DNA of 64,000 nucleotides from Octopus vulgaris (taxonomy: Eukaryota). Under the pieces are notes generated by a model, which worked only from the letters and a program-made list of their open reading frames with translations, made no database searches and was not told where the DNA came from. The stretch is taken from NCBI GenBank assembly GCA_951406725.2, contig OX597842.1, positions 15,934,001 through 15,998,000 on the forward strand. Direction: 5' to 3'. This document shows, piece after piece, positions 3,445-48,793 of this stretch. The translations under genes and the position numbers were made by a program. How positions within the stretch are numbered: position 1 is the first letter of the stretch; each line of letters starts with the position of its first letter.

Positions 3445-4345
3445 TCTTAATTAGAATAGTCAACAACCACATAGAAACAGACATCTTTTATAAACCCACA
3501 GATTCTAGACAATACCTATTATTTAACTCCTGCCACCCCAAACAGATACCCTTTAACCTACTGAAAAGACTCTGCACCATAGTTTCCGATACATACACTC
3601 GAGAACATAGACTCCTTGAACTTAGATCTACATTACCCAATTTCATTAGTAAATGAAGGCATCAAAAGAGCTAAGGAAATAGATATACAAATGTTAAGGA
3701 AAACTAGGCGAAATACTAAACAAGACTTAAAAATACTCCCGTACACTTCCCCATATAACCCTAGAAACGACGAAGCCTTCAACATTATCACCCAAAATCT
3801 TCCCATCCTCACAGCAGACAAAACAATGAACGAAATTTTAAGCTCATATAAAAATATAAAAAGCAAAAAGCAACCGAAGTCACTGAAAGAAATATTAACC
3901 AGCGCTAGACTGTATCCACTAATAACAGAGCCAAAAGTGACAAAATGTGGACGTTCTAACTGTGGAACATGCCTCCACCTTCTGGAGGGTTCAGAATTCC
4001 AATTCAAACAAGGAGAAATATTTAAGATCAAATCAAATTTCACCTGCGCCTCAGTAAATGTAATCTATGACATGACATGCATAGGATGTGGTAAACTCTA
4101 TATTGGTCAAAGAGGAATTTCGCTCCGTCAAAGAATCACCATTCACAAAGAGCGAATCCGTCACCCACAATACAGACAGTTAAATGTGAGTGAACACATA
4201 GGAGGTGTGCCAGGAATCTTAATCCCAATTCCCAAATATTTCCCTTTTACCAATGTTCACAGAACACCACAATGCAACAAAGGTTGAATACAGAGGCATT
4301 TTTCATCAATAAATTTCTCCCCCAACTAAATATGAACACACAACT
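3445..4345 (+). mobile_element. Penelope-like element fragment (RT C-terminus + GIY-YIG endonuclease)
   Basis: IETDIFYKPTDSRQYLLFNSCHP upstream; ORF 3616-4287 has KCGRSNCGTC and FTCASVNVIY.MTCIGCGKLYIGQ..LRQRITIH. Confidence 0.85.
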
Positions 4346-6984: not shown

Positions 6985-7353
6985 CGGCGGTTCTTAACCT
7001 GAGTCGTGTTGTAACAAAACAAAAATAAAAGGCAAATGTTAAAATGTTAAAATATAGGCAAATGTTAAAGCTACAATTCAGAAATAAGTGAGAGTTTTGA
7101 AGGATATGAAGAGGGGTCAGCAATTACAGAAATGGTGAGTGGCACTAAGATAGTAGAATAAGAAAACTAAGTGTATTAGGCGATAATTTCTCATTTTTTC
7201 CATAAACTTGTCATTATTTGACCATGATCTCGTTAAGAAAATAACACATATAATTAGAGTAAATCCCACTTTTTCGCAAGCGGTCGCACTCCCTTCAGAG
7301 TTACTGACGCACCCCCTGCCCCAGGGGTCGCGCTCCGAGGTTAAGAACCACTG
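6985..7353. mobile_element. hAT/Charlie-type MITE
   Basis: Terminal inverted repeats CGGCGGTTCTTAACCT (6985) and AGGTTAAGAACCACTG (to 7353), resembling Charlie CAGTGGTTCT ends. Confidence 0.65.
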
Positions 7354-7738
7354 ATCCCGAGGTAAACAACGTACATGATATAGACACTGAATTACACACT
7401 AATTTTTATACACTCCCATTCACTCATCCATACACTGAGACAGGTATTATATATAAACACAGGTATGCATTAACTATGCCTCCTCAAGTGTCACACTGAT
7501 ATATATATATATATATATACCACCTGTCAGAAATGCTACCACACTCACAGTCACAATCATTCGCATATATCTCCTATCTTAAAAGTGGACCCAGACTCAC
7601 ATTCACAAACATCCAAAACCAATAAAATGCATGTATAGAGAGACGGATGTAGACCTTAAATTGAAGTATGGAAAGACATTACGGATTTAGGAAGATATCT
7701 TCAGTGAAATAGTATAAAAGAAGATTGATTCAACTTAC

Positions 7739-7810
7739 AGAGTTTCTAAACTGGAGAGAGTTTGGAAAGTTGTTTCGTTGATTGCTTGGATATCGTTTTC
7801 AGCCAAATTC
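7739..7810 (-). CDS. LRR exon, type A (NLAENDIQAINETTFQTLSSLETL)
   Basis: 72 bp, ccag acceptor and gtaagtt donor, phase 2/2, typical 24-aa LRR. Confidence 0.9.
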
Positions 7811-8564
7811 CTGGAAATTAAAATTGTGTTAAAAACATTTATGGTAAGAAAGAGAATAAGATAATGAAGAAGTAGATAATGATGATGATGATGATGAAGA
7901 AGGAGCAGAAAAAGAAGAAGGAGAAGAAGAAAATAAAGAACAAGAAAAGAAGTAAAAGAAGAAGGGGAGGAGGAGGAAGAGGCGAGGGAGAAGAATAATA
8001 ATAAGAAGAAGAAAAAGAAGAGAATGAAGGAGAAGAGGAGCAACAAGTAGGAGATACTTCCAGAGAAGGAAACAAACACTAGTTGAGCGAAGTCCCTAAA
8101 TGGAAAAAAATGCATGAAAGACACCATCCAAGTACCTCCCCACAACACATACACACAACTATCTACTATAACACCAACATTACCAACGCCACCAGTATCG
8201 CTGCCAGCACCACCCGCCATACAAATATCCCCTTCGAAATCACCTTCGTAAATGTCCCTGCAATCCACATATTGAAGCCCTAATGAAATACATACATAAG
8301 ACTACCAACATCACACCAATAGATCACAGCACCTAACGCTTCACCTCAAATACAAATACTCAGCATAACTAACAACCCCTTAATTTCTTGAAACAAAATC
8401 TACCCCTTTGCGCTGGGAAATTTCCAAAGAACAATAACCAAAAGTTTTTACAAAACCTGATCGTGGAAACTCCTACAACCACCGAGAAGGGTGAGAGAGA
8501 CCATTCAACCTCGCCGCATCCCAAAATTAAGTTGTGCATCATTTTGTTTCTCTCATCATTGTTG

Positions 8565-9086
8565 TTCAAGCAAGGCAGTTTAAACGTGCGTGGACAGGGA
8601 TCAGTTTTCAAGTAAGGACGCTTTCTAAACGACCTCAGGTCACTGGATTTGGACGGTGTAGTCATTAGTGAAGCCAGACTGACCGGACCACAAGTTTTTT
8701 CTCTCCCCTCTATGGAGGATATGAGATGTAACGTTTCAGTGCCACCCGAGACAAGGCGATGAAACTGCAATTTGGTTCCAGAAAGGTCTAGATCTAGAGA
8801 TCAGTGTAGTCTTTGCGGACCCAGACGGCAATCTCGTCGTCCTTGATGTGAATGGTACTGATGGTGATGCTTTCAGACTGGTCGCTGTCTATGCACCAAC
8901 AAATGTTGGACAGTCAGATTATTTCAGGCGTCCGGAAGCTTTTTTGGGAATGTTGCGTAGTTTAGTATTAGTAGGTGATTTCACAGAATCCTAAGATGCA
9001 CGAATGGATTGTGAGGGGTCAAATGATAGAATTGGAAACAAATGCCTCACAAACCTGCTCAGACGTTTCCAGCTGTCTGAGAGGTA
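8565..9086 (+). mobile_element. Tx1/L1-like apurinic endonuclease fragment (repeated in each array unit)
   Basis: GSLNVRG..FLNDLRSLDLDGVVISEARL..FRLVAVYAPT..LVLVGDF, with stops. Confidence 0.8.
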
Positions 9087-9534
9087 TCGCGCTCCCTTCA
9101 GAGTTACTGACGCACCCCCTGCCCCAGGAGATGCGCTCCTAGGTGAAGAAGCACTGATCTCGAGGTAAACAACGTACATGATATAGACACTGAATTACAC
9201 ACTAATTTTTATACACTCCCATTCACGCATCCATACACCGAGACAGGTATTTATATATAAACACAGGTATGCATTAAATATGCCTCGTGAAGTGTCACAC
9301 TGATATATATATATACCAACTGTCAGAAATGCTACCACACTCACAGTCACAATCATTCGCATATATCTCCTATCTTAAAAGTGGATCCAGACTCACATTC
9401 ACAAACATCCCAAACCAATAAAATGCATGTATAGAGAGACGGATGTAGACCTTAAATTGAAGTATGGGAAGACATTACGCATTTAGGAAGATGTCTTCAG
9501 TGAAATAGTATAAAAGAAGATTGATTCAACTTAC

Positions 9535-9606
9535 AGATTTTCTAAACTGGAGAGATTTTGGAAAGTGTTTTCGTTGATTGCTTGGATATCGTTATAACTC
9601 AAATCC
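9535..9606 (-). CDS. LRR exon, type B (DLSYNDIQAINENTFQNLSSLENL)
   Basis: 72 bp, ccag/gtaagtt, phase 2/2. Confidence 0.9.
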
Positions 9607-11391
9607 CTGGTGAATAAAATTAAATCAAGAAGAACATTTATAGTAAGAAAAAGAAAAGGATGATGGAGAAGGAGTAGATATTGATGATGATGAAGAAGAA
9701 GAAGAAGAAGGAGAAGAAGAAAAAGAAGAAAGAGAAGAAGAAGAAGAAAAAGAAAAAGGAGAAGAAAAAGAAGTACAAGGAGAAGAAGAAGAAGAAGAAG
9801 AAGAAGAAGAAGAAGAGGGAGGCGGAAGCGAGGGAGAAGTAGAAGAAGAAGAAAAAGAAGAAGAAGAAGAAAAAGAAGAGAATGAAGGAGAAGAGGAGCA
9901 ACAAGTAGGAGATACTTCCAGAGAAGGAAACAAACACTAGTTGAGCGAAGTCCCTAATTGGAAAAAAATGCATGAAGAACACCATCCAAGCACCTCCCCA
10001 CAACACATACACACAACTATCTACTACAACACCAACATTACCAACACCACCAGTACCGCTGCCAGCAGCACCCGCCATACAAATATCCCCTTCGAAATCA
10101 CCTTCGTAAATTTCCCTGCAATCCACATATTGAAGCCCTAATGAAATACATACATAAGACTACCACCATCACACCAAAAGATCACAGCACCTAACGCTTC
10201 ACCTCAAATACAAATACTCAGCATAACTAACAACCCCTTAATTTCTTGAAACAAAATCTACCCCTTTGTGCTGGGAAATTTCCAAAGAACAATAACCAAA
10301 AGTTTTACAAAACCTGATCGTGGAAACTCCTACAACCACCGAGAAGGGTGAGAGAAACCATTCAACCTCGCCGCATCCCAAAATTAAGTTGTGCATCATT
10401 TTGTTTCTCTCATCATTGTTGTTCAAGCAAGGCAGTTTAAATGTGCGTGGACAGGGATCAGTTTTCAAGTAAGGACGCTTTCTAAACGACCTCAGGTCAC
10501 TGGATTTGGACGGTGTAGTCATTAGTGAAGCCAGACTGACCTGACCACAAGTTTTTTCTCTCCCCTCTATGGAGGATATGAGATGTAACGTTTCAGTGCC
10601 ACCCGAGACAAGGCGATGAAACTGCAATTTGGTTCCAGAAAGGTCTAGATCTAGAGATCAGTGTAGTCTTTGCGGACCCAGACGGCAATCTCGTCGTCCT
10701 TGATGTGAATGGTACTGATGGTGATGCTTTCAGACTGGTCGCTGTCTATGCACCAACAAATGTTGGACAGTCAGATTATTTCAGGCGTCCGGAAGCTTTT
10801 TTGGGAATGTTGCGTAGTTTAGTATTAGTAGGTGATTTCACAGAATCCTAAGATGCACGAATGGATTGTGAGGGGTCAAATGATAGAATTGGAAACAAAT
10901 GCCTCACAAACCTGCTCAGACGTTTCCAGCAGTCTGAGAGGTATCGCGCTCCCTTCAGAGTTACTGACGCACCCCCTGCCCCAGGGGATGCGCTCCTAGG
11001 TGAAGAAGCACTGATCTCGAGGTAAACAACGTACGTGATATAGACACTGAATTACACACTAATTTTTATACACTCCCATTCACGCATCCATACACCGAGA
11101 CAGGTATTTATATATAAACACAGGTATGCATTAAATATGCCTCGTGAAGTGTCACACTGATATATATATATACCAACTGTCAGAAATGCTACCACACTCA
11201 CAGTCACAATCATTCGCATATATCTCCTATCTTAAAAGTGGATCCAGACTCACATTCACAAACATCCAAAACCAATAAAATGCATGTATAGAGAGACGGA
11301 TGTAGACCTTAAATTGAAGTATGGGAAGACATTACGCATTTAGGAAGATATCTTCGGTGAAATAGTATAAAAGAAGATTGATTCAACTTAC

Positions 11392-11463
11392 AGATTTTCT
11401 AAACTGGAGAGATTTTGGAAAGTGTTTTCGTTGATTGCTTGGATATCGTTATAACTCAAATCC
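11392..11463 (-). CDS. LRR exon, type B
   Basis: 72 bp, intact splice sites. Confidence 0.9.
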
Positions 11464-13263
11464 CTGGTGAATAAAATTAAATCAAGAAGAACATTTATAG
11501 TAAGAAAAAGAAAAGGATGATGGAGAAGGAGTAGATATTGATGATGATGAAGAAGAAGAAGAAGAAGGAGAAGAAGAAAAAGAAGAAAGAGAAGAAGAAG
11601 AAGAAAAAGAAAAAGGAGAAGAAAAAGAAGTACAAGGAGAAGAAGAAGAAGAAGAAGAAGAAGAAGAAGAAGAAGAAGAAGAAGAAGAAGAGGGAGGCGG
11701 AAGCGAGGGAGAAGTAGAAGAAGTAGAAGGAGAAGAAGAAGAAAAAGAAGAGAATGAAGGAGAAGAGGAGCAACAAGTAGGAGATACTTCCAGAGAAGGA
11801 AACAAACACTAGTTGAGCGAAGTCCCTAATTGGAAAAAAATGCATGAAGGACACCATCCAAGCACCTCCCCACAACACATACACACAACTATCTACTATA
11901 ACACCAACATTACCAACACCACCAGTACCGCTGCCAGCAGCACCCGCCATACAAATATCCCCTTCGAAATCACCTTCGTAAATTTCCCTGCAATCCACAT
12001 ATTGAAGCCCTAATGAAATACATACATAAGACTACCACCATCACACCAAAAGATCACAGCACCTAACGCTTCACCTCAAATACAAATACTCAGCATAACT
12101 AACAACCCCTTAATTTCTTGAAACAAAATCTACCCCTTTGCGCTGGGAAATTTCCAAAGAACAATAACCAAAAGTTTTACAAAACCTGATCGTGGAAACT
12201 CCTACAACCACCGAGAAGGGTGAGAGAAACCATTCAACCTCGCCGCATCCCAAAATTAAGTTGTGCATCATTTTGTTTCTCTCATCATTGTTGTTCAAGC
12301 AAGGCAGTTTAAACGTGCGTGGACAGGGATCAGTTTTCAAGTAAGGACGCTTTCTAAACGACCTCAGGTCACTGGATTTGGACGGTGTAGTCATTAGTGA
12401 AGCCAGACTGACCGGACCACAAGTTTTTTCTCTCCCCTCTATGGAGGATATGAGATGTAACGTTTCAGTGCCACCCGAGACAAGGCGATGAAACTGCAAT
12501 TTGGTTCCAGAAAGGTCTAGATCTAGAGATCAGTGTAGTCTTTGCGGACCCAGACGGCAATCTCGTCGTCCTTGATGTGAATGGTACTGATGGTGATGCT
12601 TTCAGACTGGTCGCTGTCTATGCACCAACAAATGTTGGACAGTCAGATTATTTCAGGCGTCCGGAAGCTTTTTTGGGAATGTTGCGTAGTTTAGTATTAG
12701 TAGGTGATTTCACAGAATCCTAAGATGCACGAATGGATTGTGAGGGGTCAAATGATAGAATTGGAAACAAATGACTCACAAACCTGCTCAGACGTTTCCA
12801 GCAGTCTGAGAGGTATCGCGCTCCCTTCAGAGTTACTGACGCACCCTCTGCCCCAGCGGATGCGCTCCTAGGTGAAGAAGCACTGATCTCGAGGTAAACA
12901 ACGTACATGATATAGACACTGAATTACACACTAATTTTTATACACTCCCATTCACGCATCCATACACCGAGACAGGTATTTATATATAAACACAGGTATG
13001 CATTAAATATGCCTCGTGAAGTGTCACACTGATATATATATATACCAACTGTCAGAAATGCTACCACACTCACAGTCACAATCATTCGCATATATCTCCT
13101 ATCTTAAAAGTGGACCCAGACTCACATTCACAAACATCCAAAACCAATAAAATGCATGTATAGAGAGACGGATGTAGACCTTAAATTGAAGTATGGAAAG
13201 ACATTACGGATTTAGGAAGATATCTTCAGTGAAATAGTATAAAAGAAGATTGATTCAACTTAC

Positions 13264-13335
13264 AGAGTTTCTAAACTGGAGAGAGTTTGGAAAGTTGTTT
13301 CGTTGATTGCTTGGATATCGTTTTCAGCCAAATTC
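13264..13335 (-). CDS. LRR exon, type A
   Basis: 72 bp, intact splice sites, identical to 7739-7810. Confidence 0.9.
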
Positions 13336-15056
13336 CTGGAAATTAAAATTGTGTTAAAAACATTTATGGTAAGAAAGAGAATAAGATAATGAAGAAGTAG
13401 ATAATGATGATGATGATGATGAAGAAGGAGCAGAAAAAGAAGAAGGAGAAGAAGAAAATAAAGAACAAGAATAAGTAAAAGAAGAAGGGGAGGAGGAGGA
13501 AGAGGCGAGGGAGAAGAATAATAATAAGAAGAAGAAAAAGAAGAGAATGAAGGAGAAGAGGAGCAACAAGTAGGAGATACTTCCAGAGAAGGAAACAAAC
13601 ACTAGTTGAGCGAAGTCCCTAAATGGAAAAAAATGCATGAAAGACACCATCCAAGTACCTCCCCACAACACATACACACAACTATCTACTATAACACCAA
13701 CATTACCAACGCCACCAGTATCGCTGCCAGCACCACCCGCCATACAAATATCCCCTTCGAAATCACCTTCGTAAATGTCCCTGCAATCCACATATTGAAG
13801 CCCTAATGAAATACATACATAAGACTACCAACATCACACCAATAGATCACAGCACCTAACGCTTCACCTCAAATACAAATACTCAGCATAACTAACAACC
13901 CCTTAATTTCTTGAAACAAAATCTACCCCTTTGCGCTGGGAAATTTCCAAAGAACAATAACCAAAAGTTTTTACAAAACCTGATCGTGGAAACTCCTACA
14001 ACCACCGAGAAGGGTGAGAGAAACCATTCAACCTCGCCGCATCCCAAAATTAAGTTGTGCATCATTTTGTTTCTCTCATCATTGTTGTTCAAGCAAGGCA
14101 GTTTAAACGTGCGTGGACAGGGATCAGTTTTCAAGTAAGGACGCTTTCTAAACGACCTCAGGTCACTGGATTTGGACGGTGTAGTCATTAGTGAAGCCAG
14201 ACTGACCGGACCACAAGTTTTTTCTCTCCCCTCTATGGAGGATATGAGATGTAACGTTTCAGTGCCACCCGAGACAAGGCGATGAAACTGCAATTTGGTT
14301 CCAGAAAGGTCTAGATCTAGAGATCAGTGTAGTCTTTGCGGACCGAGACGGCAATCTCGTCGTCCTTGATGTGAATGGTACTGATGGTGATGCTTTCAGA
14401 CTGGTCGCTGTCTATGCACCAACAAATGTTGGACAGTCAGATTATTTCAGGCGTCCGGAAGCTTTTTGGGAATGTTGCGTAGTTTAGTATTAGTAGGTGA
14501 TTTCACAGAATCCTAAGATGCACGAATGGATTGTGAGGGGTCAAATGATAGAATTGGAAACAAATGCCTCACAAACCTGCTCAGACGTTTCCAGCTGTCT
14601 GAGAGGTATCGCGCTCCCTTCAGAGTTACTGACGCACCCCCTGCCCCAGGAGATGCGCTCCTAGGTGAAGAAGCACTGATCTCGAGGTAAACAACGTACA
14701 TGATATAGACACTGAATTACACACTAATTTTTATACACTCCCATTCACGCATCCATACACCGAGACAGGTATTTATATATAAACACAGGTATGCATTAAA
14801 TATGCCTCGTGAAGTGTCACACTGATATATATATATACCAACTGTCAGAAATGCTACCACACTCACAGTCACAATCATTCGCATATATCTCCTATCTTAA
14901 AAGTGGATCCAGACTCACATTCACAAACATCCCAAACCAATAAAATGCATGTATAGAGAGACGGATGTAGACCTTAAATTGAAGTATGGGAAGACATTAC
15001 GCATTTAGGAAGATGTCTTCAGTGAAATAGTATAAAAGAAGATTGATTCAACTTAC

Positions 15057-15128
15057 AGATTTTCTAAACTGGAGAGATTTTGGAAAGTGTTTTCGTTGAT
15101 TGCTTGGATATCGTTATAACTCAAATCC
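15057..15128 (-). CDS. LRR exon, type B
   Basis: 72 bp, intact splice sites. Confidence 0.9.
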
Positions 15129-16915
15129 CTGGTGAATAAAATTAAATCAAGAAGAACATTTATAGTAAGAAAAAGAAAAGGATGATGGAGAAGGAGTAGA
15201 TATTGATGATGATGAAGAAGAAGAAGAAGAAGGAGAAGAAGAAAAAAAGAAGAAAGAGAAGAAGAAGAAGAAAAAGAAAAAGGAGAAGAAAAAGAAGTAC
15301 AAGGAGAAGAAGAAGAAGAAGAAGAAGAAGAAGAAGAAGAGGGAGGCGGAAGCGAGGGAGAAGTAGAAGAAGAAGAAAAAGAAGAAGAAGAAGAAAAAGA
15401 AGAGAATGAAGGAGAAGAGGAGCAACAAGTAGGAGATACTTCCAGAGAAGGAAACAAACACTAGTTGAGCGAAGTCCCTAATTGGAAAAAAATGCATGAA
15501 GGACACCATCCAAGCACCTCCCCACAACACATACACACAACTATCTACTACAACACCAACATTACCAACACCACCAGTACCGCTGCCAGCAGCACCCGCC
15601 ATACAAATATCCCCTTCGAAATCACCTTCGTAAATTTCCCTGCAATCCACATATTGAAGCCCTAATGAAATACATACATAAGACTACCACCATCACACCA
15701 AAAGATCACAGCACCTAACGCTTCACCTCAAATACAAATACTCAGCATAACTAACAACCCCTTAATTTCTTGAAACAAAATCTACCCCTTTGCGCTGGGA
15801 AATTTCCAAAGAACAATAACCAAAAGTTTTACAAAACCTGATCGTGGAAACTCCTACAACCACCGAGAAGGGTGAGAGAAACCATTCAACCTCGCCGCAT
15901 CCCAAAATTAAGTTGTGCATCATTTTGTTTCTCTCATCATTGTTGTTCAAGCAAGGCAGTTTAAACGTGCGTGGACAGGGATCAGTTTTCAGGTAAGGAC
16001 GCTTTCTAAACGACCTCAGGTCACTGGATTTGGACGGTGTAGTCATTAGTGAAGCCAGACTGACCTGACCACAAGTTTTTTCTCTCCCCTCTATGGAGGA
16101 TATGAGATGTAACGTTTCAGTGCCACCCGAGACAAGGCGATGAAACTGCAATTTGGTTCCAGAAAGGTCTAGATCTAGAGATCAGTGTAGTCTTTGCGGA
16201 CCCAGACGGCAATCTCGTCGTCCTTGATGTGAATGGTACTGATGGTGATGCTTTCAGACTGGTCGCTGTCTATGCACCAACAAATGTTGGACAGTCAGAT
16301 TATTTCAGGCGTCCGGAAGCTTTTTTGGGAATGTTGCGTAGTTTAGTATTAGTAGGTGATTTCACAGAATCCTAAGATGCACGAATGGATTGTGAGGGGT
16401 CAAATGATAGAATTGGAAACAAATGCCTCACAAACCTGCTCAGACGTTTCCAGCAGTCTGAGAGGTATCGCGCTCCCTTCAGAGTTACTGACGCACCCCC
16501 TGCCCCAGGGGATGCGCTCCTAGGTGAAGAAGCACTGATCTCGAGGTAAACAACGTACGTGATATAGACACTGAATTACACACTAATTTTTATACACTCC
16601 CATTCACGCATCCATACACCGAGACAGGTATTTATATATAAACACAGGTATGCATTAAATATGCCTCGTGAAGTGTCACACTGATATATATATATACCAA
16701 CTGTCAGAAATGCTACCACACTCACAGTCACAATCATTCGCATATATCTCCTATCTTAAAAGTGGATCCAGACTCACATTCACAAACATCCAAAACCAAT
16801 AAAATGCATGTATAGAGAGACGGATGTAGACCTTAAATTGAAGTATGGGAAGACTTTACGCATTTAGGAAGATATCTTCGGTGAAATAGTATAAAAGAAG
16901 ATTGATTCAACTTAT

Positions 16916-16987
16916 AGATTTTCTAAACTGGAGAGATTTTGGAAAGTGTTTTCGTTGATTGCTTGGATATCGTTATAACTCAAATCC
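16916..16987 (-). pseudogene. LRR exon type B with inactivated splice donor (GT>AT)
   Basis: Plus strand reads caacttaT at 16915 versus caacttaC in all other copies. Confidence 0.75.
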
Positions 16988-18786
16988 CTGGTGAATAAAA
17001 TTAAATCAAGAAGAACATTTATAGTAAGAAAAAGAAAAGGATGATGGAGAAGGAGTAGATATTGATGATGATGAAGAAGAAGAAGAAGAAGGAGAAGAAG
17101 AAGAAGAAGAAAGAGAAGAAGAAGAAGAAAAAGAAAAAGGAGAAGTAAAAGAAGTACAAGGAGAAGAAGAAGAAGAAGAAGAAGAAGAAGAAGAAGAAGA
17201 AGAAGAAGAAGAAGAAGGGAGGCGGAAGCGAGGGAGAAGTAGAAGAAGTAGAAGAAGAAGAAGAAGAAAAAGAAGAGAATGAAGGAGAAGAGGAGCAACA
17301 AGTAGGAGATACTTCCAGAGAAGGAAACAAACACTAGTTGAGCGAAGTCCCTAATTGGAAAAAAATGCATGAAGGACACCATCCAAGCACCTCCCCACAA
17401 CACATACACACAACTATCTACTATAACACCAACATTACCAACACCACCAGTACCGCTGCCAGCAGCACCCGCCATACAAATATCCCCTTCGAAATCACCT
17501 TCGTAAATTTCCCTGCAATCCACATATTGAAGCCCTAATGAAATACATACATAAGACTACCACCATCACACCAAAAGATCACAGCACCTAACGCTTCACC
17601 TCAAATACAAATACTCAGCATAACTAACAACCCCTTAATTTCTTGAAACAAAATCTACCCCTTTGCGCTGGGAAATTTCCAAAGAACAATAACCAAAAGT
17701 TTTACAAAACCTGATCGTGGAAACTCCTACAACCACCGAGAAGGGTGAGAGAAACCATTCAACCTCGCCGCATCCCAAAATTAAGTTGTGCATCATTTTG
17801 TTTCTCTCATCATTGTTGTTCAAGCAAGGCAGTTTAAACGTGCGTGGACAGGGATCAGTTTTCAAGTAAGGACGCTTTCTAAACGACCTCAGGTCACTGG
17901 ATTTGGACGGTGTAGTCATTAGTGAAGCCAGACTGACCGGACCACAAGTTTTTTCTCCCCTCTATGGAGGATATGAGATGTAACGTTTCAGTGCCACCCG
18001 AGACAAGGCGATGAAACTGCAATTTGGTTCCAGAAAGGTCTAGATCTAGAGATCAGTGTAGTCTTTGCGGACCCAGACGGCAATCTCGTCGTCCTTGATG
18101 TGAATGGTACTGATGGTGATGCTTTCAGACTGGTCGCTGTCTATGCACCAACAAATGTTGGACAGTCAGATTATTTCAGGCGTCCGGAAGCTTTTTTGGG
18201 AATGTTGCGTAGTTTAGTATTAGTAGGTGATTTCACAGAATCCTAAGATGCACGAATGGATTGTGAGGGGTCAAATGATAGAATTGGAAACAAATGACTC
18301 ACAAACCTGCTCAGACGTTTCCAGCAGTCTGAGAGGTATCGCGCTCCCTTCAGAGTTACTGACGCACCCTCTGCCCCAGCGGATGCGCTCCTAGGTGAAG
18401 AAGCACTGATCTCGAGGTAAACAACGTACATGATATAGACACTGAATTACACACTAATTTTTATACACTCCCATTCACGCATCCATACACCGAGACAGGT
18501 ATTTATATATAAACACAGGTATGCATTAAATATGCCTCGTGAAGTGTCACACTGATATATATATATACCAACTGTCAGAAATGCTACCACACTCACAGTC
18601 ACAATCATTCGCATATATCTCCTATCTTAAAAGTGGATCCAGACTCACATTCACAAACATCCCAAACCAATAAAATGCATGTATAGAGAGACGGATGTAG
18701 ACCTTAAATTGAAGTATGGGAAGACATTACGCATTTAGGAAGATGTCTTCAGTGAAATAGTATAAAAGAAGATTGATTCAACTTAC

Positions 18787-18858
18787 AGATTTTCTAAACT
18801 GGAGAGATTTTGGAAAGTGTTTTCGTTGATTGCTTGGATATCGTTATAACTCAAATCC
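18787..18858 (-). CDS. LRR exon, type B (first LRR exon in transcript order)
   Basis: 72 bp, intact splice sites. Confidence 0.9.
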
Positions 18859-20774
18859 CTGGTGAATAAAATTAAATCAAGAAGAACATTTATAGTAAGA
18901 AAAAGAAAAGGATGATGGAGAAGGAGTAGATATTGATGATGATGAAGAAGAAGAAGAAGGAGAAGAAGAAAAAGAAGAAAGAGAAGAAGAAGAAGAAAAA
19001 GAAAAAAGAGAAGAAAAAGAAGTACAAGGAGAAGAAGAAGAAGAAGAAGAAGAAGAAGAAGAATAAGAAGAAGAGGGAGGCGGAAGCGAGGGAGAAGTAG
19101 AAGAAGTAGAAGAAGAAGAAGAAGAAAAAGAAGAGAATGAAGGAGAAGAGGAGCAACAAGTAGGAGATACTTCCAGAGAAGGAAACAAACACTAGTTGAG
19201 CGAAGTCCCTAATTGGAAAAAAATGCATGAAGGACACCATCCAAGCACCTCCCCACAACACATACACACAACTATCTACTATAACACCAACATTACCAAC
19301 ACCACCAGTACCGCTGCCAGCAGCACCCGCCATACAAATATCCCCTTCGAAATCACCTTCGTAAATTTCCCTGCAATCCACATATTGAAGCCCTAATGAA
19401 ATACATACATAAGACTACCACCATCACACCAAAAGATCACAGCACCTAACGCTTCACCTCAAATACAAATACTCAGCATAACTAACAACCCCTTAATTTC
19501 TTGAAACAAAATCTACCCCTTTGCGCTGGGAAATTTCCAAAGAACAATAACCAAAAGTTTTACAAAACCTGATCGTGGAAACTCCTACAACCACCGAGAA
19601 GGGTGAGAGAAACCATTCAACCTCGCCGCATCCCAAAATTAAGTTGTGCATCATTTTGTTTCTCTCATCATTGTTGTTCAAGCAAGGCAGTTTAAACGTG
19701 CGTGGACAGGGATCAGTTTTCAAGTAAGGACGCTTTCTAAACGACCTCAGGTCACTGGATTTGGACGGTGTAGTCATTAGTGAAGCCAGACTGACCGGAC
19801 CACAAGTTTTCTCTCCCCTCTATGGAGGATATGAGATTTAACGTTTCAGTGGCACACGAGACAAAGCGATGAAACTGCAATTTGGTTCCAGAAAGGTCTA
19901 GATCTAGAGATCAGTGTAGTCTTTGCGGACCCAGACGGCAATCTCGTCGTCCTTGATGTGAATGGTACTGATGGTGATGCTTTCAGACTGGTCGCTGTCT
20001 ATGCACCAACAAATGTTGGACAGTCAGATTATTTCAGGCGTCCGGAAGCTTTTTTGGGAATGTTGCGTAGTTTAGTATTAGTAGGTGATTTCACAGAATC
20101 CTAAGATGCACGAATGGATTGTGAGGGGTCAAATGATAGAATTGGAAACAAATGCCTCACAAACCTGCTCAGACGTGTAGTCGGTGTAGTCATTAGTGAA
20201 GCCAGACTGACCGGACAACAAGTTTTTTCTCGCCCCTCTATGGAGGATATGAGATGTAACGTTTCAGTGCCACCCGAGACAAGGCGATGAAACTGCAATT
20301 TGGTTTCAGAAAGGTCTAGATCTAGAGATCAGTGTAGTCTTTGCGGAACCATACGGCAATCTCGTCGTCCTTGATGTGAATGGTACTGATGGTGATGCTT
20401 TCAAACTGGTCGCTGTCTATGCACCAACAAATGTTGGACAGTCAGATTATTTCAGGCGTCCGGAAGCTTCTTTGGGAATGTTGCGTAGTTTAGTATTAGT
20501 AGGCGATTTCACAGAATCCTAAGATGCACGAATGGATTGTGAGGGGTCAAATGATAGAAGTGGAAACAAATGCCTCACAAATCTGCTCAGACGTTTCCAG
20601 CTGTCTGACGGTTATCGCGCTCCCTTCAGAGTTACTGACGCACCCCCTGCCCCAGGGGAATCGCTCCTAGGTGAAGAAGCACTGATCTCGAGGTAAACAA
20701 CGTACATGATATAGACACTGAATTACACACTAATTTTTATACACTCCCATTCACTCATCCATACACTGAGACAT

Positions 20775-20830
20775 ATATGATTCAACTTCCTGGAGAATAA
20801 AATTGTGTTAAGAACATTTATGGTAAGAAA
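20775..20830 (-). other. Empty cassette: LRR exon deleted, flanks fused
   Basis: gattcaactt joined directly to cctggagaataaaattgtgtt. Confidence 0.85.
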
Positions 20831-22779
20831 AAGAAAAAGATGATGGAGAAGAAGTAGATAATGATGATGATGAAGAAGAAGAAGAAGAAGAAGAAGAAGA
20901 AGAAGAAGAAGACGACGAAGAAGAAGAAAAAGAAGAAAAAGAAGAAGGAGAAGAAGGAGGAGGAGGCGAGGGAGAAGAAGAAGAAGAAGAAGAGGAAGAT
21001 AAAGAACAAGAAGAAGGGAAAGAGGGAGAAGAGGAGAAACAAGTAGGAGATACTTCCAGAGAAGGAAACAAACACTAGTTGAGCGAAGTCCCTAAATGGA
21101 AAAACTGCCCTAAAGACACCATCCAAGCACCTCCTCACGACACATACACACAACTATCTTCTATAACACCAACATTACGAACACCACCAATACCGCTGCC
21201 AGCACCACCCGCCATACAAATATCCCCTTCGAAATCACCTTCGTAAATTTCCCTGCAATCCACATATTGAAGCCCTAATGAAATACATACAAAAAACTAC
21301 CAACATCACACCAAAAGATCACAGCACCTAACGCTTCACCTCAAATATAAATACTCAGCATAGCTAACAACGCCTTAATTTCTTGAAAAGAAATCTACCC
21401 CTTGGCGCTGGGAAATTTCCAAAGAACAATAACCAAAGTTTTATACAAAACCTGATCGTGGAAACTCCTACAACCACCGAGAAGGGTGAGAGAAACCATT
21501 CACCCTCGCAGCAGCCCCAAAACTAAGTTGTGCATCATTTTGTTTTCCCATTTCTCTCATCATTGTTTTGCTCAAGCAAGGCAGTTTAAACGTGCGTGGA
21601 CAGGGATCATGTTTCAAGTAAGGACGCTTTCTAAACAACCTCGGGTCACTGGATTTGGACGGTGTAGTCATTAGTGAAGCCAAACTGACCGGACCACAAG
21701 TTTTTTCTCGCAGCTCTTTGGAGGATACGAGATCTAACGATTCAGTGGCACCCGAGACAAGGCGAGGGAACTGCAAGTTGGTTCCAGATTTTTCTTGTGT
21801 GTCCAAACATGTATAATTTATGTTAAATATTTAAATCTACAAAAGGGAACCTGCTTTAAGGGGGTGGGTTCCAGGAATATACATATCGCCCTTTGGGGAA
21901 GAATTTCTATCCTCTTTTGTGTACTGTGAGTTTGATTTATAGCACTAATTTTTTTTATTCTTCTAAACGTTACCTCTCGCCCTGGAAAAGGAAACACCCC
22001 ATCCCCCCCAAAGTAAAATTAGGAAAAATATTTCTTCCACTTCTGCAATGCGAACAAGAGGTAACATGTAAAAAGTATCGGCAAATGAAATCACGACGGA
22101 GAATATTTCGAACGTCACTACAGTCAGTAAATCACTTGATACTAGCGAGATAAAGAAACAAATTCGACAGTCACGGTTTCTCTTCCGTACCAAAACTCTA
22201 CCAAGAAACGCTCAACATAAATATGGATGATTTTTAAAATATCAAATATCCAATCAAAAGAAAAGGAACAAATTTCACATTGACCCCCGCCCTCGGTTAT
22301 ATCACACAACCCACTTCATGTAGAGCTGTCACCTACAAAAAGCTAATTTCAAATGACGAAGTCCACAGGGACTCTACAGACAGTAGTTCTCCTGCCGACC
22401 AACTTCGGTCGGCGAGTTCCAACGATAAAAATTGAGGAGGTTCCTCCAGAATTTCACATCTTTTGGGAAATAGCATCCGCGTTACTCGACATCAAAGAAG
22501 ATAAAAAAGATAAATAAACGAAATACACCAACAGAATTGGTGGGCAGCAGGAAGGGAAGATTTTGATATATATGGCCAAAACGCAGCATGGACTTCACGG
22601 AATTCCTTGCTGGCCTTCCACGACTCTTGGCGATAAAAGCCACAGAAGTATGGGATAACTTTGCTGGCTGCACGGTGTGCAAGTCGTCGGTTGTGGATAG
22701 TATTTCGTATGAAAGTTATTATAGTATGCATGCCAGACCTGTTTGAATGCATTTTGGCAGATATCTAGGGCAACTGGTA

Positions 22780-28270: not shown

Positions 28271-28824
28271 CCTCTGCCACGCGTTCCATCACTCATTTGA
28301 ATTGTCCGCCTCTCAGTAAAAGCGTACAAAAGAACGTTTAACATGCTTTAAATCAGCCGCACGATCCACGAACATTATTTCTCATTAGATTGACTTATAG
28401 ATCCGTCGCTGGTTTTCTACAGTAGAACTAGAGAACAGTATTTCGATTAGTACCATTTAGAATTATATTTATCAGAATATGTTTCCATTTTATACTCTCC
28501 TTCATAACAACAATACTTGCAACACGTTATGCTAACAGTTTTCCTACTCGCCGTTCCCTGAATATTTCCATAATGAGTGTTGATGTAATAAACTAGCATC
28601 ATCAAAGTTCAGATATTGTAAATTATAGATTCCATTTCAGTCAGCATGTACAATGGACCAGTCTATCTGACTTCACAGCAGTTAACATATTTGCCCTTTT
28701 TACTCCAACATAAGATCACGTTTTAAAGCTGAGATCAAAAACATAATGTATTAGTTAAGAACATAACCAACGGGAATTTAAAGCATTGAATGTGGAAACT
28801 ATATAGAAATGGTCTAATACTTAC

Positions 28825-29006
28825 AAATATTCAACATTCGGTGGAATGGGTTGCGGGATCGAAGTGAGTTGCCGAGATGAACAATCTATATTTGTCTCAG
28901 AATTTCGACAGCTACATATTGAGCAAATGTCTGATGCAGCATGAGACTCCAAAGAGAAACTCATAGAGAGTATCAACACAAACGTCAATTTCAATTGTTG
29001 GAACAT
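28825..29006 (-). CDS. First coding exon of LRR gene: signal peptide + LRRNT cap
   Basis: MFQQLKLTFVLILSMSFSLESHA-ASDICSICSCRNSETNIDCSSRQLTSIPQPIPPNVEYL; acceptor ttttacag at 29027, donor gtaagt at 28824, phase 2 matching the LRR exons. Confidence 0.92.
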
Positions 29007-29276
29007 ATTTTCAGGCGTTGATTAATCTGTAAAAGAAGAAAATACAAAATACCAGAAACTTCAATGTCAATTCTTTCCCATTGCAAATTCTTCGTAGGAC
29101 AAGATTTGGCCCCTGTTCCATGAGATGACTTTATCTTTGATTTCACTTTCAGTTTAATATTTAAACTTACGAAACTGAATTCAATGATAATTCAATGTGG
29201 TGAACATAAATCATTGAGAGATAACGTCGAAGATAAACTGAACATCAGTCGCCCCTGCATACACATGCACACACAA

Positions 29277-29879: not shown

Positions 29880-30330
29880 GTAGTGGTACTGGACGTGAAT
29901 AACAACGGGATTAGCGCCTTCAGAATAGTGACTGTTTATACCCTGACAGGGGATGGAAGGACAGATTTCTTTAGAGGTCAATAGAATTTGACGGACGGAA
30001 GGACTGTGTAAAGCCAGCACATTTCAAGGGAGGTGTGAAGTCACGAAAACCTTAGAAATTTCCAGCAGTCTGACAGGTATCGACTGGATTACCCTCTGCG
30101 TGTCGGCCTAGGCATGCTCTGGCTGTTGGTGCTCAGACACGCGTTGAGGTTGCGACACCTGCAACGATTTCTTGACGGAGAAAGTGTGTCAGCACCGTTT
30201 GTGAGGCACGTTTTCCCACAGTTCGTTTCCTTGGCAGGGTTGCGGTCCTGGGGGAAGGAAAGCCCTAAATTCTCTGCCGGGCACCTAAAGTGTCGTCAGA
30301 TGTACACAGCCCTCAACTAGTCGAAAACGC
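29880..30330 (+). mobile_element. Tx1-like LINE endonuclease/RT scraps
   Basis: VLDVNNNGISAFRIVTVY and LRHALRLRHLQRFLD, homologous to 8840-8900 and 23520-23580. Confidence 0.65.
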
Positions 30331-32819: not shown

Positions 32820-35015
32820 TACCGGTCAAGAACTGACGGATTATAGCTATAGTTTTTTTAACAGACAGCAGTATATTCCTTCATGCACAGAAAGGATGTA
32901 AACGTGGATCCTGCGGTTGTAAAGATCAACTACTCATCAATAAGAGGATCTTAGAAGATTGTCACAAACGACACAGAAACTTACCAATAGCCTGGATAGA
33001 CTGTAAAAAGGCTTTTGATAGCCTATCACATAGCTGGATTAAGAAATGCCTGGAAATGTATAAAATAGTACCTACTCTGCGAAACTTTTTGTCTGTAAGT
33101 ATGAAATCATGGAGAACCTCACTAACTTTGAACAGTGACAATGAATCTCTAAATGCTGGTGATGTAAAAATTTCATGTGGCATTTTCCACGGTGACTCAC
33201 TATCACCACTCTTCTTTTGTTTAGCCTTAATACCTCTCTCAAAATTGCTCAATGATGCGCAGTACGGATATAAAATGTTTGATAAAAGTATAAATCACCT
33301 CATTTACATGGATGATTTAAAGCTCTTTGCAAAAAATGACCAACAACTCAAGGGCTTACTAGCGATTGTTAAACAATTCAGTGATGATATCAGAATGCAA
33401 TTTGGCCTCGAAAAATGTGCAAAAGCTACCTTTATCAAAGGAAAAATGACAGAAACATCTAACGTTAACCTTGACCAGCAGAATGTCATAAAAGAATTAG
33501 ACCCAGCGGAGAGCTACAAGTACCTAGGGGTAATTGAAGGTGACGGAATAAGGCATTCAGTGATGAAGGAAAGGATCAGGAGAGAATGTTATCGCAGAGT
33601 AAGAGCAATACTCAAGACAGAGCTGAATGCGAGAAACAGGATCGAAGCGATCAATGCTTTAGCCATACCAGTCGTGACTTACAGTTAACTGGTCAATTAC
33701 TGAAATATGTAATCTTGACAGAAAAATACGAAAACTGTTGACAATGCATAGAATGCATCACCCTAAGGCAGATACAGAACGACTTTATCTGCCAAGAAAA
33801 AAGAGAGGCCGTGGACTTATACAACTGGCAATAAAAATGAAGATTGCTACGATTGGCCTAGACACCTACCTGAAACACTCTGAAACATGAAAACAAGAAA
33901 GCATCATACTCAGTAACAAAACAGGCAAAGGAATATCTAAGTGAATTCAGAATACAACACATTTCGGAATTAGACATACAAGAAACAAGCACAGAAAAAG
34001 CTAAGCGCATGAAAACCCGTGCCAAAACTGCGGCCTTAGGTATTCTGAATGATAAATGGCAAGAAAAACCTCTCTATGGCAAATACCCAAAGAGAGCGAA
34101 TAATGCAGATGTTGACAAAGCCCTGACCCATCAATGGCTAATGGCCTCTGGCTTAAAATCTGAAACAGAAGGGCTTATCATAGCAGCTCAAGATCAATGC
34201 CTACCAACAAGAAAGTACCGGGCCAACATATTAAAGAACGGCAGTAGCACAACATGTCGTGTATGTCAACAACGAAATGAAACCATTGATCATGTTGTCT
34301 CAAAGTGCAGTCTTTTAGCGCCTACAGAGTATCTCAACAGGCATGATAGAGCTGCATAATATATTCACTGGGTAAATTGCAAAAACATGAAAAAGAACTG
34401 GTGGGAACACAAACCACCCCCAGTGCTTGAAAATGACAACATCTCACTCCTCTGGAACTTCGCGATTCAAACTGATAGAAAGATAGATGCAAATAGGCCA
34501 GACATCATATTGAAAGACTCCAAACAAAGAACATGCCTCCTTATTGATATGACTGTCCCAATCGATATAAACATATCTGTCAAGACCTACCAAAAACTGA
34601 GCAAATATAAAGATCTTGAAATAGAAATCAGCAAAATGTGGAGCCTGAAAACTAAAGCAATACCTGTTGTCATAGGTGCCCTGGGAATGATAGCGAAAGG
34701 GGCTGATTGCTACCTAACTCAGATACCAGGAAACCCCAAAATGGCAGAAATTCAAAAGATAGTGCCCATGGAAACTGGTCATATCCTACGCAAAATACTT
34801 TCTATGTAATCTCAGGGTTTAAAACATACATAATTTTCGTTTATTTTTTGGAAATTCACTAGTACAACACTAAATAAAACCCCAAATATATGGCACACTA
34901 GGCATTACAACAACATGAACTTCCAACCTGCTGTCTCTTGAGGTCTCTGGGTGAGACTTGGAGCCAACTTGTACAAATATAAAGCAAAAGTCAAACATAG
35001 AATAATAATAATAAT
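32820..35015 (+). mobile_element. 5'-truncated R4/Dong-like LINE (RT, CCHC, REL endonuclease, (TAA)n tail)
   Basis: WIDCKKAFDS, GIFHGDSLSPL, HLIYMDDLKL, CRVC..ETIDHVVSKC..RHD, RPDIIL..IDMTVP..KYKDL; few frameshifts. Confidence 0.92.
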
Positions 35016-35426
35016 CTTAATAATAACTGGGTATATTGGGCTTCGTATAGTTTACCCGTATATTTTACCCGTGTCACTTTGTTGGCATGCACTGCTCTCT
35101 TACTCAATCGTAATAATAATCCTTTCTTGTTTAAGCACAAGGCCTGAAATTTAAGGGGGCGGGAATAGTGGATTACATTGACCCCAGTACCCAACTATTA
35201 CTTAATTTAACGGAGCCGAAAGGGTGAAAGACAACGTCGACATCGTTGAAAGTAATAATAATAATAATGATAATGATAATCCTTTGTACTAAAGGTACAA
35301 AGCCTGAAATTTCGGGGCTGGGGATATATTAATCAATCAATCGTAATGCAAGGCATCTATTTTCATTGCTACATCAAAATTGTGACATATGAAAAGAACC
35401 TAGTGAGAAAAAAATTAGAGACTTAC

Positions 35427-37601: not shown

Positions 37602-40600
37602 CTTATATAGTTATTTATTTCTATTTGTTTATTTATCTGTGTATTTATTATGTTTTCGGGATCCTCTACTGTAATTTGTCTGATTGTTGCATCTGTTCTA
37701 TGTGTGACAATATTTTAAGTTCTATGTTGTTGATTGATCCCCCGTGTTCCTGTTCGGCGTGTTGGTACAGAATCGATGAGCTTTTACCTCCTTGAGCTCT
37801 CTCCAATTTCCATTTACCCGCTCTCCTATGCTTATTGCCGTTTCCCCTACGTATGTCGTTGTCTTGTTACAGCATCGTCCATCTATACCTCTTATACTAT
37901 AGACTACATTTCTGACTTTACAGTTTGTTTGTGGGCTAAATCTACATACAGTACTGTACTTATCCGTACAGGGGGTTCTAATAAAAGGATAGGTTCTACC
38001 AATTATAGATTTGATAGTGTTGCCTGGCCTTTCAACAACCTTAATCCTTAGCTTTAGTTTGTCTAGGGTCCTTCTAAAGCGGTACGCCAGTTCACCTCCA
38101 GGGGTGGTGTCAACGAACATGACACTCTGGTATTTATGGCTATCATACCAAGAGTTGGCCTTCCCTATTTTCTTTTTTGTCTTTTCTATAGTGTTCCATG
38201 ACTTGTTCCTATAGAGTGGGCAAATCCCATTCCTATCATTACATAATATATTGTCAAATTTCTTCATGGCTCCTTTGTATACTCTGACCCTTTCTTTATG
38301 GCTGTAACCTGAGAACTGCATGCGGTGAATGAAATACTGTATGTGTCTCTTTAATTCTGTAGGCTCGCACATGCGTGACACATTTCTCATTATTCTGACG
38401 AGGTCTGCCATCAAAATATTGAATTTGGCATTGTCCGCAATGGCTGAGTTCCGGTGGATCAAGTATTTTGAGGCCATAGGTTTGGCGTAGTACGAATGAA
38501 GGATTTGGATTTTATTATTCACAATTTCTAGCCAGAGTTCAGTGTCTAGTACTGGTAGTCTATGGTTGGGGTGTTTAGTGGGGTAGTCTATTCTGATCTT
38601 AATACTCTGGTGGATGGAGTTAGCTATTTGCTGGATGCTCTCCATAGCATTAGTTTCTATTACTATATCAACAGTACTCTCTTGTGGGGGTGCCTTTACC
38701 ACTATGTTGATATCATCAACATAGCGAGAGTACATGTTTACGAGTATGGAGTTCTGTGTTAGGCGTTCTTTAAGCCTTCTGTCCCACCATACCATGAAAA
38801 TGTTGGCCACATCACCAGCGATACTAACGCCGATGGCTGCCCCCTCGTCCTGGGCATATATTTTATTGTTAAAGTTAAACGTGTGGCCTTTTAGGGTAAC
38901 TCTTATACTAGCTCCTCGTGCATGTGCGATCATTTTCTTTACCTGATGAACATTTGCGGGGCTCCGTATGGCTCTGGTCCATCCGCGCCATCTTTCTATA
39001 TGTGTCTTCCTAGCCATAGAAGCAATTTTGGGTGGTCTACCTCTTAAACATCTACTGGGGCAGAAACTACTAAGATTATGTTTATCTAGGTATTCATTGT
39101 TACAAGTCAGTCTAAGTTGGGGGCCCAGTTCCTCTGTGTTGTCATTACGGAACTCCACCTGGCTCTCGTTGATCATCTCCACTCTCTTCTCCACCGCAAA
39201 ATCTACGTCGATCAATGTGTATAGGGATACCACATCCATGCTACCCACCATACATCCTGTCAGGTTACAAGTGTTGTTGCAGTCATTGATCCTGCTGAGG
39301 ATATCTTCTGTAATGTCACAAACATCAGGTGACATCCGGATTATAAGGCGTATGATCATTGAGAGGAAGTAGGAGATTCCGTAATTGCTAGCGATATTCG
39401 CTCCACAGACTGGTCTTGTTGGTGGTCCTGCTATAGGGTCAGTGGTTACTTTATGGTCCTTGCGAAGTCCATACAGTGCCAGGATATCATTGTTCCAGGC
39501 GGCTTGGAAATTGTTTGCTGTACGTTTCTGGGGTCCCAGAACAATTGTCCACATCATCATGTGGGCGTTGAGGACCTTTTCTCTCTCCTCATGCGCCTGT
39601 AAAGTTGTTATTTTTGTATTGGCAATATGAGGTTGCATTGCCTGGATGTAGTTCGGTAAGCTGTCTATTGACATCCTGTGGGAAGGCATACCACCTCTCC
39701 GTTCCTCGTGCGCTGAATTAGCTTACGTAGGCCACAAGCAGGTTTAATCCCGAGTTGTTGGGCCTCTGTCTTATTCTGTCTCTTTATCTTAGTATATAGT
39801 CCTAAAATATGTCTAAGTTTGGTCCTAGCTATAGTGAAATGTGCTTTCATATGGTCATTAGTATGTCTTGGCATGTAGACTCTTTTGTTGAAGGGTAATG
39901 TTGTTGGATAAATCCATAAATCCGGCTCATGCAGTAAGATTTGTCACATATGTTGAAGAATTGAGTGTCAAAGGGGTGGGTATACATGTTAATGGCCTTT
40001 CTAGGGTTATTTTCATTATCGTGACTACTATTTCTCTCGTCACTGTTCCCATCATCAGCCTCACTATTATTATTGCCACCATTACCACTATCAGTATTAC
40101 CACTACTACTATTATTACTATTACCACCACAACTATCACTACTACCATCATTACTACTTCTACTGTTACCACCACCACTACTACTACCACTATTATTGTT
40201 ATTACCGTTATTCCTAATATTGCCATTATTGCTATCATTCTGATTATCGCTAGTGATATTTTCATTGTTCCTGTTTCTGGTGTATGTGTTGTTCATATTA
40301 GTGTTGGGTTTTATGTATGTTTGTTGGTCCCTGTCATTCCCTCTGTTGTGGTTGTTATTTTTGTTCCTACGAGTATTGTTATCTGTTTCAAGTCTACTGA
40401 CTCCCTGTCCAAGGATTCTGTTGCATTCAACTTTATTTTCCATCGTGACCCCCATGACATAACTTTTAATCTTGTCCACACATAGAACAGATGCAACAAT
40501 CAGACAAATTACAGGAACTACACAGATAATAAAAAATAAACCTAGCCTGAATAGGAAACTAGAATGGAACACTAGCACACACCACAACATATAACGGTAG

Positions 40601-43246: not shown

Positions 43247-43566
43247 GTAGTTAGACCAGTAGGTGTCGCTTCCGACAATCTCTGTTCGAAGGTTTCATTT
43301 ACCTAGCTTCAGTGGAATACATCCACTTGTTTTCAATAATAGAAATATTAAAATTACTAAGTCTCTCTAAAAGAGATCACGGCAGCGTTCCTGGAAAATA
43401 ATAGTTATCGCCATACTAATATGGCATTCTTATAAAAATAAGAATAAAGCTGTCCGCTTATTAGCTCCATGAGGCCATCGCCTTAAGTTAGCTATTTGAT
43501 ACACAAACTGTATCCATATAACCTTCGAACAAGGGAGGTCAGTCGCTCCACACTACTTGATCGATA

Positions 43567-43608
43567 GCTACAGACGCGTTTCGGGGTATTGCCCCTTTTC
43601 AATGCAGC
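43567..43608 (-). ncRNA. Minimal hammerhead ribozyme, U3-A8 core variant (copy 2)
   Basis: Identical to 43205-43246. Confidence 0.65.
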
Positions 43609-43830
43609 GTAGTCAGACCAGTAGGTGTCGCTTCTGACAATCTCTGTTCGAAGGTTTTATTTACCTAGCTTATTAAAATTATTAAGTCTCTCTAAAAGCT
43701 AATAAGCGGACAGCTTTATTCTTATTTTTATAAGAATGCCATATTAGTATGGCGATAACTATTATTTTCCAGGAACGCTGCCGTGATCTCTTTTAGAGAG
43801 ACTTAGTAATTTTAATATTTCTATCATATA

Positions 43831-44815: not shown

Positions 44816-45073
44816 TGTATGTATGTATGTATGTATGTATGTATGTATATATATATATATAGAGAGAGAACTTATAAAATAAGGGCAAATGAAAAATTCT
44901 AATGCTAAATATGCCGAAAAAAAAGACAAAATTGTCAATAACCATTATAATTTACGCGTCTCAAAACATGCCGATAGAAATTTCTCAAAAATTCCGTTAT
45001 AACCGTATTGGTCCCAATTTCGGGGTTAATTCATAAGAATTTTCCCTTCGTCTGGGATAAATACGTAAGACAT

Positions 45074-45504
45074 AAATGAAATAATTACTCATACCCATAG
45101 AAAAAGCAAGCACTAATCCTGAGCAGACCTAAGTACCCCAAATATATCCAAAATAGGAAAACTTCAGCACATCTCGAGACACGTGTGATTCGATCTAGAA
45201 ACTTTCACAGAGTAAGAGAATCCGGAAGTGAACACTATTAAATTTATAACTTTTTTTCGTAAAAAATTTTTTTTCAAAGGCCAGCATATCAAAAAATACC
45301 TTTAAAGGTTAAATTTATAAATAACTTAGTTATAAATTTAATAGTGTTCACATCCGGATTCTCTGACTCTGTGAGAGTTTCTAGATCTAATCACACGTGT
45401 CTCGAGATGTGCTGTAGATTTTCTATTTTGGATATTTTTGGGGTACTTAGGTCTGCTCAGGATCCAGTGTTGCTTTTCCATGGATATGAGTAAGTATTTC
45501 ATTT
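45074..45504. mobile_element. Fold-back MITE with ~180-bp inverted arms
   Basis: 45074-45250 is the imperfect reverse complement of 45329-45504. Confidence 0.75.

Positions 45505-48762: not shown

Positions 48763-48793
<31 letters not shown>

Follow-up and report, generated by a model that had tools for sequence, protein, structure and literature searches.

The stretch of Octopus vulgaris DNA analysed here (64 kb, hereafter the window) holds a tandem array of eight units, seven of which carry a 72-bp leucine-rich repeat (LRR) exon of type A or type B on the minus strand, and, to the right of the array, a leader exon on the same strand. In window positions, these features are:

7284..21788, no strand assigned: tandem array of eight units of about 1.8-1.9 kb each, with unit starts at 7289, 9092, 10949, 12821, 14614, 16473, 18344 and 20620; of the eight, unit 8 diverges most and is incomplete
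7739..7810, minus strand: 72-bp LRR exon, type A, unit 1
9535..9606, minus strand: 72-bp LRR exon, type B, unit 2
11392..11463, minus strand: 72-bp LRR exon, type B, unit 3
13264..13335, minus strand: 72-bp LRR exon, type A, unit 4
15057..15128, minus strand: 72-bp LRR exon, type B, unit 5
16916..16987, minus strand: 72-bp LRR exon, type B, unit 6, with AT in place of the donor GT, either an inactive donor or a base error
18787..18858, minus strand: 72-bp LRR exon, type B, unit 7, both splice sites intact
10296..10948, plus strand: decayed retroelement-like fragment, found in the intron of every unit and shown here for unit 2
28825..29026, minus strand: exon for signal peptide and LRRNT, with an ATG at 29006, an intact acceptor, a phase-2 GTAAGT donor and a Cys motif

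Each unit is marked by one copy of the 10-mer GATTCAACTT, which occurs exactly eight times in the window (at 7727, 9523, 11380, 13252, 15045, 16904, 18775 and 20779). All seven exons have the same size and phase (72 bp, phase 2/2) and encode a typical 24-aa LRR, matched by Pfam LRR_8 with E-values of 6e-5 and 1e-3, both under the curated cut-off. On the minus strand the donor is GTAAGT in six exon-bearing units out of seven and ATAAGT in unit 6 (16914-16915). An earlier reading made from the sequence alone (the sequence-only reading) had described the exon-bearing units as -AC-, exon, -CTGG; this applies to six of the seven, the -AT- of unit 6 having gone unmentioned. Unit 3, the twin of unit 6 at 0.1% divergence, has GT at this position. 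The donor change of unit 6 could be a very recent inactivation or a single-base sequencing error.

Between types A and B, 9 of the 72 exon bases vary, compared with 20 of 81 in the flank next to the exon (Fisher P 0.06). All nine differences are non-synonymous and fall in six codons (zero synonymous changes alone has a P of about 0.15), and the LRR consensus is left untouched by them (P 0.04 if the changes were random), a pattern that hints at selection on a coding exon. By the N-glycosylation sequon rule, each exon type has exactly one site, in different places (NET in A, NLS in B).

Pairwise divergence between units 1 and 4, 2 and 5, and 3 and 6 is 1.0, 0.2 and 0.1%, respectively, and to judge from these values U1-U3 and U4-U6 are the product of a recent three-unit duplication. 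The divergence of unit 8 from every other unit is 6.2-6.9%, the microsatellite tract and the deleted stretch being left out of this figure. No inverted or displaced copies of the LRR exon were found on either strand of the 64 kb, and beyond the array a motif scan, tblastn and blastn of the window turned up no additional LRR exon, no degenerate copy and no second empty site. The retroelement-like fragment at 10296..10948, presumably an endonuclease to judge from its motifs, has tblastx similarity to 29880-30083 and no relevant Pfam match. At the unit boundary (7281-7289 and 9085-9092) a truncated retroelement-like frame meets the left-edge sequence of the array through a common TCGC; this boundary is probably the junction of the founding duplication.

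The leader exon links the array to a gene also present in O. sinensis. Its coding part (29006-28824, minus strand) is 91.8% identical to the first 61 aa of an O. sinensis LRR protein (P0181), and a profile search with the A and B exons yielded two hits among 554 candidates, both of them O. sinensis isoforms, X1 and X3 (P0182 and P0181), of a 'leucine-rich repeat-containing protein 4-like', which is an automatic annotation name; the B exon alone, used as query in a single-sequence homolog search, yielded none among 17 candidates. X1 and X3 consist of a signal peptide, an LRRNT and three or four repeats, and are set apart by exactly one 24-aa repeat. The first O. sinensis repeat agrees with type A at 22 of 24 aa, whereas nothing in the window corresponds to the second and third, which share 9-13 of 24 aa with A or B; in their stead the O. 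vulgaris window has A and B copies, together with an empty first position. Because the leader exon is intact and matches the O. sinensis homolog, the array is the LRR region of a real gene on the minus strand.

From right to left, this gene has the leader exon first, then the empty unit 8, followed by B, B (dead donor), B, A, B, B and A. Joined together, the leader exon and the six intact exons form 204 stop-free codons, and the locus probably encodes an extracellular LRR protein with a signal peptide, an LRRNT and one 72-bp phase-2 exon per repeat. No C-terminal exon of the sort expected of LRRC4/NGL or of LRR adhesion GPCRs (LRRCT with Ig, or GAIN/7TM) was found in the 7.3 kb to the left of the array, which is a weak test, and a Pfam scan of minus-strand frames gave 3/196 matches, namely a weak and probably spurious NP1-WLL, a transposase and a reverse transcriptase (RT); the scanned frames were complexity-filtered and at least 36 aa long, and this negative is weak since the filter had also dropped the real leader exon. 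The gene probably runs on beyond the window. Comparisons with the Atlas and the PDB returned generic LRRNT/LRR neighbours alone, and 60 further LRR hits without names were left out of account. LRR-bearing adhesion GPCRs are described as expanded in octopus (5 of 22 sequences, in the accessible text of PMC6408891), which is only a lead to the receptor class of the array gene. Read-through of the phase-2 GTAA of the donors yields an in-frame TAA (28822-28824 and 7736-7738, and likewise at all exon donors), and a retained intron would lead to a short LRR protein that is secreted. Such a GTAA donor position, or else a contig limit, is where the O. sinensis models stop.

The window also contains several mobile and duplicated elements, and its repeats as a whole suggest the genome of an animal. 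One of its reverse transcriptases is 83% identical to an Octopus vulgaris protein and at most 66% identical to the remainder of the best 120 of 476 matches. Two 3' ends of a non-LTR retroelement family, 92% identical, lie in opposite orientation at 1252-1807 and 34465-35026, and the longer of the copies (32837-34809) keeps its RT and zinc-finger frames. A 666-aa open frame at 37722-39722 (minus strand) has a weak RT match (E 3.5e-4) and is, by resemblance, probably Penelope-like; a GIY-YIG-like remnant lies at 3583-4287. There are also foldback (self-inverted) elements of 430-510 bp (43336-43827, 45068-45510, 52943-53394 and 58019-58444), as well as older multi-kb duplicated blocks of 78-88% identity within 47993-63652 (47993-49188, 56615-58020 and 62191-63652; 49647-53022 versus 59415-62172).

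The main peculiarity of the array is its eighth unit, in which the exon is missing. The features at and next to the empty site are:

20774..20789, minus strand: complex junction of unit 8, made of TATA (20774-20777), an 11-bp island from the donor side (20778-20788) and a single leftover base (20789); its counterpart in unit 1 is 367 bp and this base
20790..20811, minus strand: orphan splice acceptor of unit 8, a pyrimidine tract and CAG, A-like, followed by G-AAGT
19766..20594, no strand assigned: tandem duplication of 418 bp, lying between the exon of unit 7 and the empty site, with a 6-nt junction filler at 20177-20182

The junction reads GATTCAACTT-C-CTGG (20779-20793), with the acceptor kept and the exon gone. 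Compared with unit 1, 73 bp are missing, the counterpart of 7737-7809, that is, 71 of the 72 exon bases and the donor GT; the near-precise excision of the exon proposed by the sequence-only reading is therefore real. On the minus strand the acceptor is followed by one G and then by AAGTTGAATCA, giving AG-G-AAGT, which misses an exact AG|GTAAGT by one base, and what is left of the site is a complete acceptor together with donor positions +3 to +6 (AAGT). This empty junction occurs once in the 64-kb window, and an exactly precise exon-less junction does not occur there.

A second lesion lies next to the first. The deletion of roughly 280 bp that had been read there is borne out in size, in that 283 bp (unit-1 7443-7725), present in all seven other units, are missing; it is not a plain deletion but a deletion with insertion, the 4-nt filler TATA (20774-20777) having taken their place. 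TATA is of low complexity, and a templated origin for it is only a candidate. The two lesions are 11 bp apart, and the retained island between them (20778-20788) matches the donor flank; when the deleted 367 bp were shuffled 100,000 times, only 28 of the shuffled sequences contained it, so that it is not a chance match. The island could equally be a templated insert or leftover sequence between two deletions. Altogether, 367 bp have become 15 bp, island included. Two candidate functions for the site were rejected: a cryptic replacement exon behind the acceptor (20727-20789, minus strand; 21 open codons, in-frame GT at +45 and +63) has weak sites that are within chance, and a recursive splice site, which has the motif AG|GT, is ruled out by the absence of GT.

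Unit 8 occupies the position of the first LRR, where the O. sinensis homolog has an A-like repeat, and its 22-nt acceptor has two mismatches to A and five to B; because of this position and of the A-like acceptor, the lost exon was probably of type A. The 84-bp flank of unit 8 is equidistant from both types (11 A, 11 B and 1 private among 23 variable columns). Along the acceptor flank (20790-20870, against 7811-7890 and 9607-9690) A and B alleles alternate, and further off 43 of 59 variable columns are private. This flank looks ancestral to A and B, an appearance for which low complexity may be an alternative explanation. Aligned with unit 1, hence with an A-type exon assumed, the 73-bp junction shows a TT microhomology of 2 bp; with a B-type exon as reference it amounts to at most 1 bp. 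The TT microhomology of the sequence-only reading is thus exact, and the A-like first LRR of O. sinensis lends independent support to the exon type it presupposed. A microhomology of 2 bp is nevertheless weak evidence, as about 17% of deletions placed at random in this unit would show at least that much.

The empty unit is best explained as the scar of a one-off error-prone repair, polymerase-theta-like or by template switching, rather than as the product of dedicated shuffling, and this reading is held with considerable confidence. One junction carries a filler and the other a microhomology, and two junctions only 11 bp apart would be expected in about 1.2% of cases if they were independent. 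The loss is of 73 bp rather than 72, with an extra T missing and the GT broken, and 73 is the offset that has the 2-bp homology; around this junction the homology amounts to a 7/10 match, in the top 2% of the background. A second junction with templated filler, that of the 418-bp duplication, lies about 600 bp from the empty site, its 6 nt being a copy from its own adjacent flank (found in 1,287 of 100,000 shuffled flanks). Finally, the empty site is present in one of eight units, the terminal and most diverged one. The point change in the donor of unit 6, the stop-free 204 codons and the one-repeat difference between the O. sinensis isoforms also count in favour of this reading. Filler, microhomology, clustered junctions and the single affected unit make an error-prone deletion the better supported of the two alternatives offered by the sequence-only reading. 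The other, a mechanism that removes or moves LRR modules, finds no positive support in the window, where one unit in eight is empty and there are neither stray or inverted exons nor a second empty site.

The following course of events is envisaged. An intron-exon unit was amplified in tandem, presumably by unequal crossing-over with homogenisation. The most 5' unit (unit 8), outside the recent homogenisation, would then have been hit by an error of double-strand-break repair or by a template switch. One end would have found a short priming homology immediately within the donor (two exact bases within a 5/6 match between the start of the A exon and the donor), copied some 11 bases, released and rejoined 280 bp further on with the TATA filler. 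That the 73-bp and 283-bp lesions arose in one complex event is somewhat favoured; that they were two separate deletions is rather unlikely. Since the exons are symmetric, the loss would be harmless to the frame: the upstream exon would splice in frame to unit 7, and the loss may have been tolerated as a solenoid one repeat shorter. Copies in the array die in more than one way, by deletion in unit 8 and by a point change in unit 6, where the base may be a sequencing error.

Natural animal genomes are reported to carry deletions of 50-200 bp with minimal homology and with templated insertions made by iterative priming of polymerase theta (as far as the available portions of PMC4032859 go). The empty unit resembles such TMEJ scars in the size class of its 73-bp loss, in minimal junction homology and in what may be a short insert copied from nearby and several rounds of priming, and a role of the polymerase is putative. 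With respect to the range in that source, the 73-bp loss lies inside it, whereas the 283-bp and the combined 367-bp losses exceed it; moreover, both ends of the first jump lie at exon borders, which TMEJ does not predict.

This border precision is what fits least. Neither breakpoint of the 73-bp loss is more than 3 nt away from its exon border, for which P = 1.6e-4 per random deletion of 30-400 bp (under a 1/length prior), and among deletions that remove the exon 0.3% (within 3 nt) to 0.8% (within 5 nt) match both borders. Microhomology was tried as the cause of the precision and rejected: weighting by perfect homology lowers the figure, and weighting by imperfect homology gives 0.6%. Under the repair reading the match to both borders would be a coincidence, accepted because this is a single case picked post hoc from a genome scan. 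The coincidence leaves room for a splice-aware route.

Turning to the other explanations, it is improbable that the empty unit is an artefact of assembly or consensus, arising where a tandem array of near-identical units ends. An array in which units 2 and 5, and 3 and 6, are only 0.1-0.2% apart is hard to assemble, yet unit 8 diverges by 6-7% in its own right to either side of the junction and has a filler and an 11-bp island in register, all of which look like old biological change; it also adjoins unique sequence.

The splice-aware route proposed here is an RNA-templated exon deletion, in which a reverse-transcribed full-length circular intron (joined from 3' to 5' splice site) would template an exon-less unit. 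Because the introns flanking an exon of a tandem array are copies of each other, the cDNA of an intron circle would be a ready template; mistakes in copying or subsequent damage would account for the lost T and for the deletion next to it, and unit 8 would be a slightly damaged example. Such a route would explain the border coincidence directly, remnants of a retroelement reverse transcriptase do lie in the window, and introns circularised at full length are known from yeast, human and Entamoeba (according to the accessible part of PMC11146597). In unit 8, as in those circles and in recursive splice sites, the acceptor directly meets donor-derived sequence, but its GT is broken by one base, which makes it neither a faithful junction nor a usable site. 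In the known circles, as described in the same part of PMC11146597, the intron's 3' end, trimmed or A-tailed, is joined to a 5' splice site that is retained, whereas in unit 8 this end is whole. On the acceptor side the junction does not copy the adjoining B-type intron, the route calls for one or two further events (for the 283-bp lesion, for example), and the case is single. On balance, there is only a slim chance that the exon was lost in this way.

It is very unlikely that LRR modules are excised or shuffled in a programmed or somatic way, whether as in VLRs or as hypothesised for brown algae. The exon-per-repeat architecture would suit such a process, as would the near-duplicate repeats of the O. 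sinensis homolog and the A/B differences, all of them amino-acid changes that spare the consensus. Against it, the germline gene appears to have working splice sites and an open frame and no incomplete cassettes, inverted or displaced exon copies are absent from the 64 kb, and the lone empty site is damaged on its intron side. VLR assembly is also marked by somatic variation from cell to cell, driven by deaminases. The germline VLR locus, in the available text of PMC13428168, is an incomplete gene with donor cassettes, whereas the octopus locus has spliceable exons, an open frame and a leader exon; as read here, it is on anatomy that a VLR-like programme fails. In brown algae themselves, the portions of PMC11378527 at hand report no somatic recombinant locus. 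An empty site that was ancestral, with the exon inserted later, deserves practically no credence, for even though a 73-bp insertion with a 2-bp duplication formally fits the comparison of units 1 and 8, the full acceptor and donor positions +3 to +6 (AAGT) would already have been present, the O. sinensis homolog bears an A-type repeat at the first position, and unit 8 also lacks the 283 bp seen in all seven other units.

The array has counterparts in distant lineages. With the ROCO genes of Ectocarpus, for which somatic LRR shuffling has been proposed (PMC3341825), it shares one 72-nt exon per LRR, a variable repeat number, inactivation of exons by loss of splice sites and non-synonymous change at variable LRR positions (in the accessible sections of PMC3341825 and PMC11378527). 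Unlike those genes, as described there, the octopus locus repeats whole intron-exon units head to tail on one strand, without inverted intronic exons, and its protein is of the extracellular signal-peptide/LRRNT type; empty cassettes are not described in these sections. The LRR arrays of Tetrahymena (available text of PMC6564038) are similar in their phase-2 symmetric exons, tandem intron/exon units, presumed unequal crossing-over and LINE-like sequence beside the units, and differ in exon length (90 versus 72 bp here), while the octopus locus is an animal gene of which one small array has been seen. A literature search, mostly without subscription papers, found no account of the octopus array or of a natural exon deletion at splice borders in LRR arrays.

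To sum up, exon-per-repeat LRR arrays, known from brown algae and ciliates, are now seen in a cephalopod, a finding of modest value. The number and order of repeats have changed recently, as shown by the three-unit duplication at 0.1-1.0% divergence and by the different set of repeats in the O. sinensis homolog, and on the likeliest reading the copies of the array are born and lost by ordinary means. Should deletions at exon borders turn out to recur in arrays of this kind, a route that removes protein modules by RNA templating or by targeting would be indicated. If true, an RNA-templated loss would be the mirror image of intron loss, a deletion of single modules at splice borders in repeat-protein genes.
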